Source of the DNA: a virus
Virus record (IMG/VR): IMGVR_UViG_3300044815_000165
Coordinates: 1-64,000 of that record
Length of the DNA: 64,000 nucleotides
Strand: one strand, 5' to 3'
The notes under the pieces are model-generated. The model ran no database searches. It saw only the letters and a list, made by a program, of their open reading frames with translations, and had not been told where the DNA came from. Below, in pieces: positions 1,453 through 52,918 of this stretch. Made by a program: the position numbers and the translations under genes. The first letter of the stretch is position 1. Each line of letters opens with the position of its first letter.

Positions 1453-2853
1453 ATGATCAGAATGCAAGATTACGAGGGTTATCACGGCTTCGGCCAGCTC
1501 GCTCAGGGCGACGTCGACGAGCTGTCCAAGGCGCTCAGCGCCGGCTACCAGAATCCGCCCGTGTCGGGCTCGAACGCGCTGCGCGTCGAGTCCCTCGAGC
1601 AGACGCTGCGTGTGCTCACGTTCACGCAAGCACACGTGCAGTTCTGGCGGGACATCCCGAAGCTGCCCGCGTTCTCGACGGTCGAGGAGTACAACGTCCA
1701 GACGAGCTACGGCTCCGAGGGCGGCATGTTCACCAAGGCCGGCGAGCTGCCGCAGGTGCAGGACGCGTCGTACGAGCGCCGCACCGCGCTCGTGAAGTAC
1801 GTGACCACGCAGCGCGAGGTCGATCACCCGACGATGCTCGTCCGGCCCGCCCACGGCAACGTGGTCGCGCAGGAGACGCAGAACGGCGGCGTGTGGATCC
1901 TCGAGCGTGTCGAGCGCGCGCTGTACACCGGCCGCAGCGACGTGATCGCCGAGGCGTGGGACGGCATCGACACGCAGATCCGCAGCGACCCGTCCGCGTC
2001 GACCACGTCGATCATCGATCTCCGTGGCGGCATCCTCACCGAGGACAACATCGAGGATGCGACGAACCGCATCATCGAGAACTACGGCGTGCCGACGGAC
2101 CTCTACGCGGCGCCGAAGGCGCTGTCATCGATGGTGAAGCAGTTCTACCCGCGCGAGCGCTTCAGCATGCCCGCGCCGGTCGATGGCACGGTCGGCATGT
2201 CGGTGAACAAGGTCCGCACGCAGGCGGGCCTCATCAACCTGAAGGGGAACATCTTCCTCCGCTCGGGCAAGAATAACAGCGTCAAGAACGCGCCGGCATC
2301 GGCCAACGCGGTGCGCGCTCCGGTGCCGTCCTCGATCGCTGCCGCGAACGCCGCGGGTCCGCTCGCGACGTCGCTGTTCGCGGCCTCGGACGTCGGCGCA
2401 TGGCGCTACAAGGTGACCTCGGTCAACCGCTTCGGCGAGTCGGCCGCGAGCGCCGTGTCGATCGCCTCGGTCGCAGCTGCGGGTGACGGGATCACGCTGA
2501 CGATCACGAACAACGCCGACTCTTCGGACGTGACGACCGGGTACAACATCTACCGTTGCCCGATCGTCGGCGGCGTCGCCGGCACGGAGCAGTTCATGTG
2601 GCAGGTGCCCCGCATCGCGGGCTCTGCGACGACGGTGTTCGTCGACGTGAACCGCTACCTGCCGAACACGTCGAAGGCGTACCTGAAGCAGATGAACCTC
2701 CAGGCCATCAGCTTCCGGCAGCTCGCGCCGATGATGAAGATCCCGCTCGCGACGATCGCGCTGTCGGTGCGGTGGGCGATGCTCCTATATGGAATGCCCA
2801 TTGTTTATGCGACCCGAAAGTTCGTGATTTTCGATAACGTGGGCGACGAGTAA
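1453..2853 (+). CDS. Major capsid protein, SPO1/Twort/K-like
   Basis: 466 aa; LSKALSAGY..ALRVESLEQTLRVLTF..FWRDIPKLPAFSTVEEY, IIDLRG, FN3-like insertion YKVTSVNRFGESAAS, C-terminal LAPMMKIPLA motif. Confidence 0.92.
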   Translation: MIRMQDYEGYHGFGQLAQGDVDELSKALSAGYQNPPVSGSNALRVESLEQTLRVLTFTQAHVQFWRDIPKLPAFSTVEEYNVQTSYGSEGGMFTKAGELPQVQDASYERRTALVKYVTTQREVDHPTMLVRPAHGNVVAQETQNGGVWILERVERALYTGRSDVIAEAWDGIDTQIRSDPSASTTSIIDLRGGILTEDNIEDATNRIIENYGVPTDLYAAPKALSSMVKQFYPRERFSMPAPVDGTVGMSVNKVRTQAGLINLKGNIFLRSGKNNSVKNAPASANAVRAPVPSSIAAANAAGPLATSLFAASDVGAWRYKVTSVNRFGESAASAVSIASVAAAGDGITLTITNNADSSDVTTGYNIYRCPIVGGVAGTEQFMWQVPRIAGSATTVFVDVNRYLPNTSKAYLKQMNLQAISFRQLAPMMKIPLATIALSVRWAMLLYGMPIVYATRKFVIFDNVGDE

Positions 2854-2885
2854 GACTCGGACTATCGTTGCCCGCCTAATGGTGG

Positions 2886-2891
2886 TAGAAT
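2886..2891 (+). promoter_or_regulatory. Extended -10 box (TGG TAGAAT) upstream of HNH gene
   Basis: TGnTAGAAT directly 5' of the hairpin; no clear -35. Confidence 0.45.
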
Positions 2892-2892
2892 T

Positions 2893-2924
2893 CTCCTCGG
2901 AGCTGACACTCCGGGGAGTTTTTT
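2893..2924 (+). terminator. Intrinsic terminator after capsid gene (also sequesters SD of HNH gene)
   Basis: CTCCTCGGAG-ctgaca-CTCCGGGGAG stem-loop followed by TTTTTT. Confidence 0.8.
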
Positions 2925-2930
2925 CGTTTT

Positions 2931-3506
2931 ATGGCGCGTCCGCGAGTTCTGATTCCGATCAAGAAGAAGTGCGAAGGCTGCGGCGTGATGTTTCTCGCAA
3001 CAACCAGCTACGCGATCACGAAGCAACGCTGGTGCAGTCGAACTTGCTCACTACCTGTGGTTCAAGCTGCGAAGCGCGTCCCGAAGGTCAAGCGAAGTTG
3101 CGAGCAGTGCAGCAAGGCCATCAAGCGTGTGCCGTCACATTTCGCGAACCGCGATCACGTGTTCTGCTCGAACGCTTGCCGAGGACAGTGGCGCTCTGAT
3201 CATGGGGATTTGTTCGGAGAGAACAACGCACAGTGGAAGGGCGGCTCCGCAACATGGTGGAAGCAGCGAGCGCGCGAGCGCGACGACTTCACCTGCCAGG
3301 TCGACGGCTGCGACGTGCGAGACGAAGGCAAGGGGACGCACGCGCACCACAAGCTCCCTCGCGAGGCTGGCGGAGACGACGCGCTCGACAACCTCGTCAC
3401 GCTCTGCGATCACCACCACCAGGTTGCCGAGCGTCAGCTCATCCTCCGCGTGTTCGAGCTAGCTCCCGACATTGTCCGCCGCGCGATCACCGAGATGTAT
3501 GGCTGA
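2931..3506 (+). CDS. Free-standing HNH homing endonuclease with N-terminal Zn-finger repeats
   Basis: CEGC..WCSRTC, CEQC..FCSNAC, NAQWKGG, RDDFTCQ..C..HAHHKLP..DNLVTLCDHHH; lower GC in 5' half. Confidence 0.9.
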   Translation: MARPRVLIPIKKKCEGCGVMFLATTSYAITKQRWCSRTCSLPVVQAAKRVPKVKRSCEQCSKAIKRVPSHFANRDHVFCSNACRGQWRSDHGDLFGENNAQWKGGSATWWKQRARERDDFTCQVDGCDVRDEGKGTHAHHKLPREAGGDDALDNLVTLCDHHHQVAERQLILRVFELAPDIVRRAITEMYG

Positions 3507-10408: not shown

Positions 10409-12800
10409 CGACGACGTGAAGATCGGGCTGTCCGCGGATCTCTCGACAGCCCAGCGTGACGGCGAGGCGTACATGGACGCCTTCCTGAAGGGCGTGAAGT
10501 CGCGCACGAGCGCGAACCCGTTCACGCCGATGACGCTCGGCAACGGGATGCAGACGACCGGAGGTCCGTCGACGCAGGATCCGATCGCTGCGGTGCTCAG
10601 CAAGATCCTATCGACGCTGCAGATGGGGTTCGCGCAGGGACTGCCCGGAGCACCGGGGGCCGCCGGCGCCGGCGCGGCTCCACCCGGCGGGGCAGCGAAG
10701 CCGGCGTACGCGCCGTACACGCCGCCTGCCGGACGCTTCGGCAGCAACGAGGACGGCACCATCGACTGGAAGCGCATCGGTGGCGCCGTCAACCGCACAC
10801 CGATGCAGCAGATCGCGAACACGTATCAGGGCGGCGGATACCAGACCGACGTCGCCGGGCTCGCGTCCAACGTCGCCGGCAACATCCCGATCTTCGGTCC
10901 GGCGCTGAAGCAGTTCGGCGAGATGATCACCGGGACGCTCAAGCAGCGCGACGGCGCCCTCGAGCAATCGCTCGACATGTTCCGCAGCGGCGGCAAGCAG
11001 GCGTGGGGAAACTTCCGCAACATGATGACGGGCGGTCCCAACGACACGGGGCAAGCCGCCAACCACAGGATGATGTATTGGAGCGGGCTCTCGCACGGCG
11101 AGGTCGGCTCGCTGATGAAGCAGCAGAACTCCTACGGACGCACGGGCGGCGCGATGGAGGGCCTCGCAGGACTCCAGGGCTTCTACGGGCTCGGCAGCCA
11201 GGGCGCGAGCTACATGACGTCGCTCGTGCACGGCGGTGACTTCGTCGGACGCAAGGACACGGCGAAGGGTCAGGACGTCGAGAAGCGTGCGTTCGCCGAG
11301 GTGATGGCCGTCGCGATCGGCACGCAGCTCGATCGCGGTCGGTGGGGTGAGGCGTTCACCGCGATGACGCGCGCGGCAAGCTCGGTGACGACGGGCGATG
11401 TCGATCGTCACGCACTCCTTGCGCGCCAGCAGTTCATCGGGCAGATGGGCGATCGCTTCAAGGGCGACACCGCGTCGGCGCAGACGATGAACAACGTCAT
11501 GAGCGGTCTCCAAGGAGGACAGGGCGGCGGCGTCGCGAACATCTTCGCGTTGCAGACGGCCTTCCAACAAGGTGCGGGGAGCTACGGCGAGGCGAGCATG
11601 ATGGTGGCGCGCGGCCAGGCGAAGGGCGGCATCGATCTCAAGCTCCAACTCCAGCGCTTCGCGAAGATGCCGCTCGTGGCCGACTACCTGAATTCTCCGA
11701 TCGACTCGTCGAAGGCGCTCGGAGATGCGTCGTTGTACCTCTCGATGATGCTCCCCGGGTACAAGCGATCGGACATCGAGGCGCTCCTCCGAGGCATGCG
11801 CAAGGAGGGCGGCGGCGCGCGCTTCCCGGAACCGATCTCGGTCGACACCACGCGCGTGATGGAGGCCCAGCTCTCGATGAACGGACCTGGCGGTCAACGC
11901 CTTCCCGAGCGCGAGAGCGATCTCATCCGCAGCCAGATCGACAAGGGAGACATGTGGAACGAGAACGCGATCGGGCCGACGCGCGTCTCTGATCTGGGAC
12001 GCAGCGTCGAGAATCAAGACGAGGCCGATTACCGCGTGAGTGGTCTCGATGCAGCGCAACCCTCCAACCAGGGCGCGCGCCTGCGCGAGGTCGGCACGAA
12101 CAACTACAACGGATCCATTGAGCAGCGCGGAGCATCGTCGAGCGGAGACATGACGAGTCCCGACTTCATGAAGAAGTACACGCGCGCGGGTGGACGCTTC
12201 GGTGCCACGGGTGCGGATCGCAAGAACCCGCACGGCGGCGTCGATCTCGAGTTGGGCTCGCAGGCGTCGGTGTACTCGCCCGTCGACGGCACCGTGCGTG
12301 CGTCGCGCATCGGGACCGGGCAAGAGGTCGGGTTCGGTGTGACGATCGTCGCCGACGACACGGGCTACGAGCACGGCGTGTTCCATCTCGATCCCAAGAC
12401 CGTCGGACCGGGCATCAAGTCCGGCGCGCGCGTGCGCAAGGGGCAGTTCCTCGGGAAGCTCTTCAAGGGCAAGGCGTTCACGTCGGGCGTGCCGAACCAC
12501 ACCCACTACCAGGTGAAGGACAAGGACGGCCAGGTCATGGATCCGGGCAAGGTGCAGGACATGAGCGATCTGCAGAAGGCGTCGCCGGATCAGCCCGTCA
12601 TGACGCCAGCCGCAGCGCCGCAGAACGGCGCGCCGACGACGCAGGGTCCCGTCATGTCACCGACCGCGTCCGCCGGCGGCGGTGGTGTCGACGTCAACGT
12701 GTACGTGTACGACGGACGCATCTCCGTGCAGCGTGTCGCCGCGAATCGTCGACAGCACGGCGCGCCCGGGACGCTCGGCGGGAAGAAGCGGATCGGATGA
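10401..12800 (+). CDS. Tape measure protein with C-terminal M23 peptidase domain
   Basis: GGAGG RBS; G/A/Q-rich helical body; HGGVDL..VYSPVDGTV..HGVFHL..NHTHYQV M23 motifs. Confidence 0.8.
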   Translation: MANDDVKIGLSADLSTAQRDGEAYMDAFLKGVKSRTSANPFTPMTLGNGMQTTGGPSTQDPIAAVLSKILSTLQMGFAQGLPGAPGAAGAGAAPPGGAAKPAYAPYTPPAGRFGSNEDGTIDWKRIGGAVNRTPMQQIANTYQGGGYQTDVAGLASNVAGNIPIFGPALKQFGEMITGTLKQRDGALEQSLDMFRSGGKQAWGNFRNMMTGGPNDTGQAANHRMMYWSGLSHGEVGSLMKQQNSYGRTGGAMEGLAGLQGFYGLGSQGASYMTSLVHGGDFVGRKDTAKGQDVEKRAFAEVMAVAIGTQLDRGRWGEAFTAMTRAASSVTTGDVDRHALLARQQFIGQMGDRFKGDTASAQTMNNVMSGLQGGQGGGVANIFALQTAFQQGAGSYGEASMMVARGQAKGGIDLKLQLQRFAKMPLVADYLNSPIDSSKALGDASLYLSMMLPGYKRSDIEALLRGMRKEGGGARFPEPISVDTTRVMEAQLSMNGPGGQRLPERESDLIRSQIDKGDMWNENAIGPTRVSDLGRSVENQDEADYRVSGLDAAQPSNQGARLREVGTNNYNGSIEQRGASSSGDMTSPDFMKKYTRAGGRFGATGADRKNPHGGVDLELGSQASVYSPVDGTVRASRIGTGQEVGFGVTIVADDTGYEHGVFHLDPKTVGPGIKSGARVRKGQFLGKLFKGKAFTSGVPNHTHYQVKDKDGQVMDPGKVQDMSDLQKASPDQPVMTPAAAPQNGAPTTQGPVMSPTASAGGGGVDVNVYVYDGRISVQRVAANRRQHGAPGTLGGKKRIG

Positions 12801-48432: not shown

Positions 48433-48663
48433 ATGCCATCATTCCAAAAATTCCTCCTCATCTTCGGCACGTCGGAACTGATCATGAGCGCCGCGCACTG
48501 GGTCATGAACAACCAGCCGCTCGCGATCATCCACGGGGCGCTCGCTACCATGTCCGGCTTGGGAGCCGCCGCCATCCGCGCGAAGTTGCATCGGGATCGT
48601 GAAGAGATCCCGGCTGCGCGCGTCGTGTCAGACGGGCGGCGTATCGTCTCGGAGAAGAAGTGA
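48433..48663 (+). CDS. Small two-TM membrane protein
   Basis: GAGGAG RBS; two hydrophobic stretches; AT-rich 5' end. Confidence 0.5.
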   Translation: MPSFQKFLLIFGTSELIMSAAHWVMNNQPLAIIHGALATMSGLGAAAIRAKLHRDREEIPAARVVSDGRRIVSEKK

Positions 48664-49112
48664 TGTTCTGGGAACGCCGCACCACCGGACCGATCAAGGC
48701 GATCCACCCGGCGACCAAGAAGATCATCGAGGTCGACCCGCAGAAGGACGCCCGCATCGGGTCGGACCTCGACGCCGAGCTGCGCCGCCTCCCGGCCGTC
48801 CTGAGCTGGTACCTCTCGCTGCGCGACACCGCCGAGGAGCACCTCCGCAACATGCGCCACGAGGAGCACAACGCGGAGGAGGACCTCTACGAGGAGATGC
48901 GCGCGAACTCGCCGAAGGGCACCGAGACGTCCATCAAGATGTCCGTGAAGAAGCACCCGCGCATGCGCAAGGCGTTCCGCGCCCGCATGGACGCGCAGGA
49001 CATGCACCAGAAGCTGAAGAGCCAGGTCGGCGCGATCGAGGAGAAGCGCTGGTCGCTGATGGGGCTCGTGAAGTCCGCGCTGATGGAGCGCGGCACCAGA
49101 GACAACGCCTGA
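48660..49112 (+). CDS. UvsY-like recombination mediator
   Basis: Helical; LYEEMR..KGTETSIKMSV..HP..AIEEKRWSL pattern; adjacent to ssb and recA. Confidence 0.7.
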   Translation: MMFWERRTTGPIKAIHPATKKIIEVDPQKDARIGSDLDAELRRLPAVLSWYLSLRDTAEEHLRNMRHEEHNAEEDLYEEMRANSPKGTETSIKMSVKKHPRMRKAFRARMDAQDMHQKLKSQVGAIEEKRWSLMGLVKSALMERGTRDNA

Positions 49113-49172
49113 TCTGAGAGCCAATTCTGGCCTGACGATCTTGAACACACCTGAACGACCGAGGAGCTACCG

Positions 49173-50084
49173 ATGACGGACAAGAGCAAGAACACCGACA
49201 AGAAGAAGAGCACCGAAGACCTCGACGACATGCGCGAGGCGTTCCGCAAGCACAAGGAGCGCGCCGCGGGCGGCGGCGGTAAGAACGACTGGGACAAGCT
49301 CGGCGACGGCAAGAACATGCGCCGCGTCCTCCCGCGTCCGGGCGAGCGGAAGTTCTACACGGAGGGCTGGACGCACTTCAACGTCGGCCCGAACAACCGC
49401 GCGATGCGCTGCATCGACGAGGCGAACATCGACGACGAGCGCGGGCTCCCCAAGTCGGAGACGAAGTGCCCGCTGTGCAAGAAGTTCCTCCGCGAGCAGT
49501 CGCGCATCAACAGCGAGTACAAGAAGGGCGACAAGGACGGGCACGCGGAGTGGAAGGTCGCGAAGGACAAGTACGTCCCGCGGCACCAGTTCTACGCGAA
49601 CGTGCTCGTGCCCGGTGACGACGACGAGGGCGACGTCGAGATCAAGATCCTCGCGTTCGGTCCGCAGGTGTGGAGCCAGCTGATGAACTTCTACCTCGGC
49701 GACGACACCTCGATCGGCGACTTCACCAAGCCGAAGAGCGGCCGGTGGATGAACATCAAGAAGGAGAAGAAGGGCGGACGCGACCGCCGCAACATCGAGT
49801 ACAAGGTGTACCCGGCGAGCGACTCCGACGACATCTCTGAGGCGTGGGACGCGATCCTCGCTGGCCTCCACGACCTCGACGCCGCGGTCGGCAAGGCGTC
49901 GTCCAAGGACGAGATGATCGCCGTGATGAAGGGCGTCGACCTCAACAAGGGCTCCGACGACGACAGCGGCGACGACGAGAGCAGCGGCAAGAAGAAGAGC
50001 CGGGACGATGACGACGAGGAAGAGGAGCGTCCCTCCAAGAAGTCGAAGCTCGGCTCGAAGATGAAGCGCCGCGACGACGACTGA
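49173..50084 (+). CDS. gp32-like single-stranded DNA-binding protein
   Basis: RVLP, H..C..CPLC Zn site, RHQFYANVLV, IKILAFG, IEYKV, charged tail. Confidence 0.85.
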   Translation: MTDKSKNTDKKKSTEDLDDMREAFRKHKERAAGGGGKNDWDKLGDGKNMRRVLPRPGERKFYTEGWTHFNVGPNNRAMRCIDEANIDDERGLPKSETKCPLCKKFLREQSRINSEYKKGDKDGHAEWKVAKDKYVPRHQFYANVLVPGDDDEGDVEIKILAFGPQVWSQLMNFYLGDDTSIGDFTKPKSGRWMNIKKEKKGGRDRRNIEYKVYPASDSDDISEAWDAILAGLHDLDAAVGKASSKDEMIAVMKGVDLNKGSDDDSGDDESSGKKKSRDDDDEEEERPSKKSKLGSKMKRRDDD

Positions 50085-50089
50085 AGACC

Positions 50090-50240
50090 GTTGAGATGGC
50101 GGAAGTAGGTAGACGCGCCAGCCTAGACGTGACCCGATAACGGGCGCGTCGAAGCGGGTGTCTGGTAGCCAACGGGTTGCGCTGCAGCCGCGCTCGTTGC
50201 GTTCGCATCGGACTTGCTGGTTCGAGTCCAGCTCTCAACA
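50090..50240 (+). ncRNA. tRNA-Leu-like RNA with large insertions in anticodon and variable arms
   Basis: Acceptor GTTGAGA/TCTCAAC + A discriminator; D arm TGGCGGAAGTAGGTAGACGCG; T arm GCTGG-TTCGAGT-CCAGC; 151 nt in total. Confidence 0.8.
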
Positions 50241-50249
50241 CGAGGACAC

Positions 50250-51326
50250 ATGCCGAAGAAGCAAGACAAAGACAGAGCCCACGAGATCCGCGTTATGCGA
50301 TCGACGCACAGCGAGATCACACGCATCAACGCGAAGGCAGACGTGCTTCTCAAGAACGTCATCGACCTCGGCGTTGTCCGTCCTCCTCCGAAGATCGACA
50401 AGGAGAAGGAGAAGAAGCTCACCAAGCTCTTCGCGAAGCTCAAGAAGAAGTACGACGATGTCGACGTGGTGACCACGATCGCCAACGGCTCGCGGAGCGC
50501 CACCAAGATCAGCACCATCCCGTCCGGGTGGCAGGAGATGGACGACCTCATCACCGGCGAGACCGACTCCGAGGCGCGCACCATCCCGGGCACGGGGCTC
50601 GGCTGGCCGCGCGGGCGGATCATCGAGGTCTACGGCGACGAGGGTGTCGGCAAGACGTCCCTCTCGCTGCAGATCATCGCGGCGTTCCAGAAGGCTGGCG
50701 AGGAAGTCGCGTTCGTCGACGCCGAGCACTCGCTCGACGTCCGCTACGCGAAGAAGCTCGGTGTCGACCTGACGCGGCTCAAGATCGCGCAACCGGACGA
50801 CGGCGGCGAGCGCGCCCTCTCCGTGGTTGCCGAGCTGTGCGAGAGCGGGCTGTTCGGCTGCATCGTGGTCGACTCGGTGGCCGCGCTCACGCCGGCGTCC
50901 GAGCTGGAGGCCGACTTCGAGGACACCATGCAGCCGGCGCGGCAGGCCGCGCTGATGTCGCGCGCGCTGCGCAAGCTCTCCGGCATCGTCTCGAAGAGCA
51001 ACACGCTGCTCGTCTTCACGAACCAGCAGCGCATCAAGATTGGTGTCCGGTTCGGCAACCCGAAGACGACGCCGGGCGGGCAGGCGCTGAAGTTCTACGC
51101 GTCGATCCGCATCGAGCTGGTGATGATCAAGACCGTCCGCAAGGGCGACCGTGTCGTCCTGCGCCGCACGCGCGTGCGCACCGTCAAGAACAAGGTGGCG
51201 CCGCCGTTCCGCGACGTGTTCGTCGACGTCGTCCCGAACCAGGGCTTCGCCGCGGTGTACTCGGATCCCGACTTCGGCGGGAAGAGCACCAAGAAGAAAG
51301 ACGAGGACGACGATGGCGGCGAGTAA
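50250..51326 (+). CDS. recA: RecA/UvsX recombinase
   Basis: GWPRGRIIEVYGDEGVGKT, FVDAEHSLD, IVVDSVAALTP, TTPGGQALKFYASIRI, KNKVAPPFR. Confidence 0.96.
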   Translation: MPKKQDKDRAHEIRVMRSTHSEITRINAKADVLLKNVIDLGVVRPPPKIDKEKEKKLTKLFAKLKKKYDDVDVVTTIANGSRSATKISTIPSGWQEMDDLITGETDSEARTIPGTGLGWPRGRIIEVYGDEGVGKTSLSLQIIAAFQKAGEEVAFVDAEHSLDVRYAKKLGVDLTRLKIAQPDDGGERALSVVAELCESGLFGCIVVDSVAALTPASELEADFEDTMQPARQAALMSRALRKLSGIVSKSNTLLVFTNQQRIKIGVRFGNPKTTPGGQALKFYASIRIELVMIKTVRKGDRVVLRRTRVRTVKNKVAPPFRDVFVDVVPNQGFAAVYSDPDFGGKSTKKKDEDDDGGE

Positions 51327-51612
51327 CAGCATCGCGGCGCTCTGCGGGAAGACGGCACACGTCATCGTGTCGCGCATCGCGTGCGAGGCGTGCCAGGAGA
51401 ACACGGCGCGCTACATCTCGATCGATGACGAGGCCATCGCATTCACGTGCGGCACGTGCCCGGTCAAGCACGGCTGGGAGTCGATCAGGATCTCCGACCT
51501 CGCGCCGCTGTTCGATGTCGTCATCAAGCTAGTTCGCGCCGAGCGCGTGACGGCACTCGGCAGCTCAGCTGCGATCGACGAGTTGCGATCGATCCTCGGG
51601 AGGAAGCCATGA
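51313..51612 (+). CDS. Hypothetical Zn-binding protein
   Basis: CEAC..CGTC. Confidence 0.55.
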   Translation: MAASNSIAALCGKTAHVIVSRIACEACQENTARYISIDDEAIAFTCGTCPVKHGWESIRISDLAPLFDVVIKLVRAERVTALGSSAAIDELRSILGRKP

Positions 51613-51863
51613 GCGCGCTGAAGATCGGCGACATCGTTCATCTCAAGTCGGGTAGCGGCATGATGACGGTCGAGAACATCCACCACCAGGAAACGCAGAT
51701 CGACGTCGTGTGGTGCTCGTCTTCGCGCGGACTCGAGCGCGCCACGTTGCCTATCGCGTGCATCAAAGAAGGTGCGATGCACGATCGCCTCAACAAGGAC
51801 GGCGTTCCTCCGCCACGACCACGTCGATCCAAACCGGATTACGGAGACAACGGCGAGAAGTGA
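51609..51863 (+). CDS. YodC/DUF2158-like protein
   Basis: LKIGDIVHLKSGSGMMTV..VVW. Confidence 0.75.
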   Translation: MSALKIGDIVHLKSGSGMMTVENIHHQETQIDVVWCSSSRGLERATLPIACIKEGAMHDRLNKDGVPPPRPRRSKPDYGDNGEK

Positions 51864-52670: not shown

Positions 52671-52918
52671 AGCCGACGCGCGAAGCCACCGTGAACGCGA
52701 ACCAGCTCGCCGAGCTGCGTTGGTTGGTTGGATCGGAGACGCCGAAGTCGGCGGCAGCTGCGAAAGCTCTCCACCGTCGTGGTCTCGTCTACGTCGTCGA
52801 CCAATGCGGAGCTGGCTGCTGTCGGCGTTATCGGCTGACAGAATTCGGTCGTCACTTCTATCGATTCACGAAGGAGATCTCCGCACCGTTGCTGTTGACA
52901 TTGTCAACGCTAACGTAG
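52667..52918 (+). CDS. Hypothetical winged-helix-like protein
   Basis: ALHRRGLV..YRLTEFG. Confidence 0.5.
   Translation: MKPTREATVNANQLAELRWLVGSETPKSAAAAKALHRRGLVYVVDQCGAGCCRRYRLTEFGRHFYRFTKEISAPLLLTLSTLT

Follow-up and report, generated by a model that had tools for sequence, protein, structure and literature searches.

Transfer RNA genes in phage genomes are usually read as helpers in codon usage or, lately, as replacements for tRNAs that defense systems destroy. The closest described analogue of the element reported here is species 1 RNA of phage T4 (rnaC, 139 nt), which is likewise a stable phage RNA of about twice tRNA size and whose biological role is still open (PMC3014915). When fetched and folded, rnaC displays a canonical T arm (CCGGG-UUCGAAU-CCCGG), an acceptor-like closing stem, and two long internal hairpins, the second of which adjoins the T arm, i.e., the layout of the present element in the same size range (~120-150 nt). 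However, the likeness does not extend to sequence homology: R1, the covariance model of the element family, matches the T loop of rnaC alone (12.4 bits, E 0.54). Moreover, the acceptor stem of rnaC is imperfect (5/7), a Leu-type D arm is not evident, and the gene lies in a tRNA gene cluster instead of a replication/recombination operon. A second point of reference is the class II tRNA-Leu(CAA) of mycobacteriophage Douge, with which the element shares the acceptor/D/T architecture, the D-arm sequence, a CCAGC strand, and A73. The Douge tRNA measures 84 nt compared to 151 nt for the element, which lacks the 5-bp stem with its 7-nt anticodon loop and carries ~54 nt at the variable-arm position. 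Unlike phage tRNA-Leu, the element goes undetected by the Rfam tRNA model (RF00005), even up to E 10.

Folds of tRNA shape also serve as processing signals, as in mitochondrial tRNA punctuation, the t-elements of plant mitochondria, and the mascRNA of MALAT1. The acceptor/T-stem stack and the elbow are the features that are read by RNase P, RNase Z, the CCA-adding enzyme, and other top-half binders. Punctuation-type signals lie in longer transcripts, where they define mRNA ends and free a small tRNA-like RNA; by analogy, the top half of the element would recruit RNase P and RNase Z. These systems are eukaryotic or organellar, or else consist of weak, non-tRNA-like sites in E. coli mRNAs, whereas the element belongs to a phage operon and is clearly derived from tRNA-Leu, with cleavage as a prediction. 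RNase P cuts non-tRNA substrates, including phage RNAs and polycistronic operon mRNAs (reviewed in PMC11143913). Another RNA that shares with the element a tRNA-like domain and the lack of decoding is YrlA, which is also present in phages and mimics the D/T elbow of tRNA (PMC4201824). Assignment to the YrlA or Y RNAs was rejected: the element has no Rfam match, and the genome contains no Ro60/TROVE match. The ends of YrlA, furthermore, sit in the Ro-binding stem and not in an acceptor stem.

The element itself is a 151-base RNA gene on the plus strand (50090-50240) of the window, i.e., of the whole 64,000-nt stretch that was analyzed, and occupies the ssb/recA junction of an uncultured soil phage. 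Its source record is an 89-kb IMG/VR virus (76% complete), in which it is the sole tRNA-type gene. As for cultured relatives, tblastn with the SSB sequence revealed none nearer than 30% identity, and megablast and blastn searches of 50,697 phage records gave matches to the D arm only. The following features are distinguished:

49173 to 50084, plus strand: ssb, single-strand DNA-binding protein (PHROG 1192, E 6.9e-21), kept in relatives
50090 to 50096, plus strand: 5' strand of the acceptor stem, GTTGAGA, with 7/7 Watson-Crick pairs to 50233-50239
50099 to 50116, plus strand: class II, Leu-type D arm, GCG-GAAGTAGGTAGA-CGC, with a 3-bp stem and a loop that holds G18 and G19
50117 to 50159, plus strand: hairpin A at the anticodon-arm position, present in constrained and unconstrained folds
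50160 to 50213, plus strand: hairpin B', ~54 nt at the class II variable-arm position, abutting the T arm (fold with the top half fixed)
50216 to 50232, plus strand: canonical T arm, GCTGG-TTCGAGT-CCAGC, read from the sequence, with two of five pairs compensatory across the family
50233 to 50240, plus strand: 3' strand of the acceptor stem, TCTCAAC (50233-50239), and discriminator A (50240), a predicted 3' processing site
50242 to 50252, plus strand: recA ribosome-binding site GAGGA (50242-50246) and start codon ATG (50250), with an MPKK start common to relatives
50250 to 51326, plus strand: recA, RecA (Pfam PF00154, E 2.8e-82)

The two flanking genes are those that a previous, sequence-only reading of this DNA had named, and both are packed closely against the element. 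The stop codon of ssb (TGA, 50082-50084) lies 5 nt ahead of it, and the ATG of recA at 50250 follows 9 nt past the discriminator, with GAGGA 4 nt upstream of the ATG; the stored RecA gene call (P0001, 343 aa) starts 45 nt later, at ATG 50295. Consensus scans called neither a sigma-70-like promoter nor a plus-strand terminator in 48500-51800, and hence none between ssb and recA.

The outer parts of the element provide what a canonical tRNA top consists of: a 7-bp acceptor stem with discriminator, a D arm with G18 and G19, a 5-bp T stem, and a UUCRANY loop; U8 and G9 are present as well. The perfect acceptor stem, the A discriminator, the Leu-type D arm, and the canonical T arm had all been pointed out from the letters alone, and each was found again at the positions listed above. 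The same holds for the lack of an encoded CCA, since A 50240 is followed by CGA in the window. The affiliation with leucine tRNAs is based on the D arm, whose sole blastn matches among the 50,697 phage records are annotated tRNA-Leu genes of the mycobacteriophages Douge and Chaser (92.9% identity over query positions 38-65, with a weak E of 0.7). In the Douge tRNA-Leu(CAA) gene, both the D arm and the CCAGC 5' strand of the anticodon stem are the same as in the element.

The middle of the element is built differently. From G26 (50117) to the T arm it spans 98 nt, where a class II tRNA has ~35 nt, and ~82 nt of hairpins (50118-50199) replace the 17-nt anticodon arm. The inner part of hairpin A is a 10-bp hairpin (50126-50150) with an AUAA tetraloop, while the apical part of hairpin B' (50170-50199) consists of a CAACGGG/CTCGTTG stem and the loop CUGCAGC; the sequence-only reading had recognized both of these stems. 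A 7-nt anticodon loop is absent: in the folds, the loops of the window element are either AUAA or seated on an 11-bp stem, and no 5-bp anticodon stem with a 7-nt U33 loop was found at the standard distance from the elbow. With Douge as the homologous guide, CU-AGA-CG would open the anticodon loop, but a GCUGG partner strand does not follow. The cloverleaf that had been drawn earlier, with a CCAG/CTGG anticodon stem, a "residual TAG", and a pairing between the two inserts, is not supported. Its stem sequences, CCAG (50118) and CTGG (50162), do exist, but they form one of at least three competing pairings in the middle of the element, and with the top half fixed the corresponding fold reaches -60.0 kcal/mol, ~6 worse than the best fold at -65.9 kcal/mol. 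Similarly, CCGAT (50134) and ATCGG (50207) are both present, but their pairing has no counterpart in the homologues. The more general proposal of that reading, a tRNA-Leu-derived RNA that is unable to decode as it stands, agrees with the present analysis.

Comparison with described RNA classes leads to a similar picture. Rfam searches of the window, carried to E 10, returned nothing at the gathering threshold and nothing better than E 0.4, and searches to E 0.5 at the related loci L008, L006, L021, L010, L002, and L025 yielded no meaningful family; a match to a described family, with which the previous reading had reckoned, was not obtained. Full-length detection failed with RF00005 as well as with ARAGORN in default mode. 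A tmRNA was rejected, as ARAGORN -m finds none in the 89-kb genome and the acceptor pair 3-70 is U-A or C-G, not G3-U70. The element family is not in Rfam, and it is not a canonical tRNA, tmRNA, or YrlA RNA.

Relatives of the phage were gathered via RecA and SSB alignment, which delivered ~20 distinct contigs that keep the ssb-recA order. Three homologues of the element were found, all of them in related uncultured phages. The L008 element (125 nt) sits exactly at the ssb/recA junction, with the acceptor stem GTCGAGG/CCTCGAC, the D arm GCG-AAATTGGTAGA-CGC, and the T arm CCAGG-TTCGAGT-CCTGG. The L006 element, also exactly at the junction, measures only 50 nt: it comprises a perfect 7-bp acceptor stem and the T arm, and otherwise a D-loop remnant and a short connector, without a D arm or middle hairpins. 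The third homologue, L021 (124 nt), is 89% identical to L008 (blastn E 2e-43) and is located ~320 nt downstream of recA, just past a GTTGACA-type box like the one at window position 52894. Downstream of it, after 16 nt, an ATG opens a reading frame of 20 codons, which terminates where the following gene starts. All members end 9-16 nt ahead of the Shine-Dalgarno sequence and ATG of the next gene, in 4/4 the 3' end is an A followed by CG, and in 0/4 a 7-nt anticodon-type loop occupies the arm position.

Searches beyond these relatives added few loci. Exact-pattern scans of viral contigs with the inserts, the 5' half, and the 3' half returned only L008, L006, and the unrelated tRNA-Leu(GAG) of L024, and the corresponding scan of genome contigs returned only loci of unrelated bacteria, mostly ordinary-length tRNA-type according to a minihelix finder. 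A first metagenome scan with a RecA query gave no matches. In soil and freshwater runs, contigs with 90-97% identity to the window include at least the element's first 40-68 nt, where the sole change is A>C at 50107, a position that belongs to the variable pocket of the D loop.

The site of the L021 copy has some peculiarities of its own. The 20-codon reading frame (MKIVIFSDTHIH...) lies between the element and a new GTG start of the downstream gene. On either side of the copy lies one unit of a 17-nt imperfect direct repeat (1827-1843 and 1979-1995; 15/17 positions, 3/2000 shuffles as good), which duplicates the ribosome-binding region of that gene and leaves its original ATGAGCGA start stranded upstream of the element. 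The L021 copy looks like a recent insertion or relocation; target-site-like flanking repeats were not significant for the window, L008, and L006 in the shuffle test. A small open reading frame through the element was rejected as well: it is open in L021 only (50 aa), and on inspection its counterpart in L008 and the window is interrupted by stop codons.

More importantly, the stems of the four members covary. In the four-sequence alignment (A5), 57/57 cells of the acceptor, D, and T stems pair, and four pairs have changed on both sides: acceptor pair 3 (U-A or C-G), acceptor pair 7 (A-U or G-C), T-stem pair 1 (G-C, C-G, or U-G), and T-stem pair 3 (U-A or A-U). When the partner strand is slid by 1-3 columns as a control, 25-40% of the cells pair, with zero double changes. 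The statistics are thin in that they are drawn from four members among ~20 related contigs. Between the window and L008, 8 stem positions differ, every one of them in matched pairs. The family model R1 finds one copy per carrier in 16 related viral records and the phage's own genome, and the remaining matches in those records (E 0.03-1) fall in coding sequence and lack a T arm. Of the ordinary tRNAs, tRNA-Leu genes obtain the highest R1 scores (56, 55, and 41 bits). A lax finder that looks for a T arm plus a 7-bp acceptor stem produces ~1 match per shuffled genome and was not counted alone as evidence, so that the case for more than chance is built on the Leu-type D arm, the R1 scores of tRNA-Leu genes, and the three homologues with compensatory changes. 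These comparisons of sequences establish tRNA-Leu ancestry, loss of the anticodon arm, and presence at gene junctions in related phages. With the pairing of the top half demonstrated, they further indicate selection on the acceptor/T-stem stack and, in 3/4 members, on the D-arm elbow. In structural and evolutionary terms the case is solid, and the family is small so far.

What this RNA does is a separate question. The reading that we favor, and to which we assign about an even chance, is that of a non-decoding, tRNA-Leu-derived RNA whose top half would serve as a substrate for RNase P and 3' processing in the ssb-recA transcript. According to this model, the element would be placed within an ssb-recA co-transcript, host RNase P would cleave 5' of 50090, and a 3' tRNA-processing activity would cleave after 50240; the RNase Z type is proposed for the latter because no CCA is encoded. 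Cleavage would release a stable RNA of ~151 nt and split the ssb message from the recA message, which would keep a 9-nt leader with the Shine-Dalgarno sequence. In the course of its evolution, the anticodon arm would have been swapped for a non-anticodon hairpin, and the variable arm would have grown to a hairpin of ~54 nt, while the 12-bp acceptor/T-stem stack, the T loop, the D-loop elbow, and A73 are retained. A processing module is favored because the element would lie within an operon transcript and ends so shortly before the next start codon, and a function of the top half only is favored because compensatory changes have preserved the acceptor and T stems, while the inserts cannot be aligned between the window and L008/L021 and are missing in L006. 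The junctions of sister lineages, which are bare or hold unrelated spacers, would fit a site of transcript ending or processing. Three functions had been put forward from the letters alone. An RNase P-type signal, which depends on the top half only, is the one favored here, whereas a decoy for anticodon nucleases is disfavored, given that no member has an anticodon-like 7-nt loop and that L006 has no arm at all. We infer that cutting of the mRNA, rather than an activity of the released RNA, would be the selected function.

Several observations weigh against this processing role. Tight packing onto the next gene is normal for phage tRNA genes, as in Douge, and position alone is a weak argument. 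The L006 element could be a recent deletion relic and not a minimal working form, and the high identity of the L008 and L021 elements could reflect a recent transfer of the element, considering their different sites and the L021 repeat. Since most relatives do without the element, it is dispensable for the expression of ssb and recA. Finally, the D arm and the pairing of the hairpins are kept in L008 and L021, and the released RNA itself may matter.

This last point leads to the possible, though rather doubtful, alternative that the element acts in trans as a tRNA mimic, i.e., as a free RNA after excision and CCA addition. Such an RNA could be a decoy or sponge for readers of the class II acceptor end, the elbow, and the long variable arm (e.g., tRNA-targeting toxins), a substrate of LeuRS that does not get as far as the decoding site of the ribosome, or a naturally occurring "tRNA scaffold" for the stabilization of cargo hairpins. 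A mimic would explain why the D arm is kept in L008 and L021, why D-arm and elbow nucleotides are conserved in 3/4 members, and why A73 is present in 4/4; on the other hand, L006 keeps the minihelix without the D arm and both hairpins, which also disfavors a function common to the whole family that depends on leucylation, the remaining one of the earlier proposals. The middle region can be viewed in two ways, too. In L008 and L021, it consists of a shorter hairpin at the arm position with a 4-5-nt loop and a 50-nt hairpin at the variable-arm position, and pairing in these hairpins survives one compensatory and three one-sided changes, with two near-apex pairs broken in the second hairpin of L021. 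With the top half fixed, the same two-hairpin layout recurs in the window despite differing sequences. Against a mimic, the sequence of the inserts is unconserved: the middle of the window element has no significant similarity to those of L008 and L021 (337/1000 and 794/1000 shuffles as good). The occurrence of the element as a discrete module in two genomic contexts would suit a mimic, as would the precedent of T4 rnaC, a stable phage RNA with a like layout. However, the 76%-complete genome contains no genes for Ro60/TROVE, RtcB, or a CCA-adding enzyme, and the data indicate no target. A more specific version, which we consider improbable, is that the excised, CCA-tailed RNA would be a counter-defense decoy for abortive-infection toxins that modify or cleave the acceptor end of class II tRNAs. 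Candidates would be DUF1814 nucleotidyltransferases of the AbiEii/MenT type, which might be soaked up via the acceptor end and the oversized variable arm; MenT3 picks tRNA-Ser via its long variable loop (PMC11162799). If so, the recA junction would be merely a convenient place for expression.

It is unlikely that the element is a decaying tRNA-Leu pseudogene, which has acquired insertions (window, L008, L021) or deletions (L006) and is drifting to loss. The patchy distribution would be in keeping with decay: the SSB tree places the window, L008, and L006 in a seven-member clade together with the element-free L002, L003, L010, and L025, so that the element is either ancestral with losses or mobile, and in most of the ~20 relatives, including nested sister lineages, ssb and recA abut or nearly so, with no element there. 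Sizes from 50 to 151 nt, the failure of the Rfam tRNA model even at E 0.5-10, and the lack of a functional anticodon arm in all four members point in the same direction. Nevertheless, drift would not be expected to yield four compensatory double changes together with 100% pairing in the acceptor, D, and T stems, nor to confine all 8 stem differences between the window and L008 to matched pairs. The 89% identity between the L008 and L021 elements exceeds that of their recA third codon positions (68-70%; positions 1 and 2, 86-91%), and the similarity runs from G1 to just past A73, with unrelated flanks. Likewise, one near-identical metagenome contig has 1 change in 68 nt of the element compared to 4 substitutions and 9 gap letters in 80 coding nt upstream. 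The sequence-only reading had named the lack of covarying homologues as the sign of a decaying pseudogene; three homologues with covarying stems were found. On these comparative grounds, we regard the element as a conserved tRNA mimic rather than a dead gene.

Restoration of a decoding tRNA by splicing is very improbable. ARAGORN -i does call a tRNA at 50090-50241, with a 62-nt "intron" and the anticodon ACC, and the top half is flawless. A group I intron, however, comprises ~200 nt or more with a conserved P3-P8 core, and was rejected here, as the extra sequence does not exceed 82 nt and yields no match to Intron_gpI in searches up to E 10, in agreement with the earlier remark that the insert is far too small. 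Nor does the genome contain a gene for an RtcB ligase, and no excision yields a Leu anticodon after U33. ARAGORN finds no tRNA in L008 or L006, whether or not the rest of these loci is included, or in L021; the loops of the L008 and L021 hairpins have 4-5 nt, and L006 has no arm at all. Hardly credible is the notion that the real gene is a 94-nt tRNA-Cys(GCA) at 50148-50241, which is the default output of ARAGORN and would use CUGCAGC, with U at position 33 followed by GCA, as its anticodon loop: the fit is poor and partial, with two mismatches and a G-U in the acceptor stem and a weak D arm, the perfect 7-bp acceptor stem and Leu-type D arm upstream would be left unused, the Rfam tRNA-Sec-like alignment of that span reaches 13.7 bits (E 8.2), and no equivalent is called in L008, L021, or L006.

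Besides aiding codon usage and replacing destroyed tRNAs, the element family represents a third outcome for phage tRNA genes, in which the decoding half is discarded and compensatory evolution preserves the half read at the acceptor end. As a processing signal, it would constitute "tRNA punctuation" of an operon mRNA in a bacterial virus, and a natural counterpart of the engineered tRNA scaffold. If it acts in trans, T4 species 1 RNA, a puzzle for fifty years, would gain a relative that is amenable to experiment. In both cases, the small size and sharp boundaries of the element make it an easy target in vitro.

Some of the element-free junctions in related phages hold other sequences. At L002, an unrelated spacer of ~105 nt separates ssb and recA, and at L010 (3458-3637, plus strand) and L025 (3479-3665, plus strand) there are unrelated structured spacers of ~160-180 nt; all three end with a T5 run. 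An origin of these spacers as remnants of the element was rejected, as local alignments were no better than shuffles. The L010 spacer adopts a multi-branched fold with a closing stem of ~14 bp (z-score -3.0), followed by CCACC-TTTTT, and has no Rfam match. The L010/L025 spacer might represent another kind of structured RNA, or else a module for termination; a simple terminator scan missed the hairpin-plus-T-run spacers of L002 and L010, which are terminator-like by eye only.

In trees of 18 relatives, L008 belongs to the clade of the window by SSB and to a different clade by RecA, which implies that the ssb/recA junction is a recombination (mosaic) boundary in this phage group. In L008/L022 (1540-3714, plus strand), recA is one frame of 724 aa with an in-frame insert of ~400 aa (tblastn gap 2253-3442) that matches a LAGLIDADG-like domain and is probably an intein with a homing endonuclease. 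The recA gene of L026 has a gap similar to that of L008, and P0055, one of the relatives, is a 622-aa RecA with an intein-splicing domain.

Further tRNA-like fragments were encountered elsewhere. In the phage's own genome, outside the window (~86940-87050, minus strand), lies a second fragment with the T arm TAGGG-TTCGATT-CCCTA, followed by CCACGGG-A-CCA, so that CCA is encoded. A D arm is missing, a long hairpin carries a CUC loop, and only 5/7 acceptor pairs form; R1 does not match this fragment. An unrelated AT-rich phage contig, L024, contains an 89-nt element (10578-10666, plus strand) that adjoins the tRNA-Leu(GAG) gene mentioned above and has a 7/7 acceptor stem and a canonical T arm, but its D arm is degenerate and two small hairpins stand where an anticodon arm would be; it is uncalled by ARAGORN and scores 25.5 bits with R1. 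Non-decoding tRNA look-alikes may be commoner in phage tRNA clusters than annotation implies.
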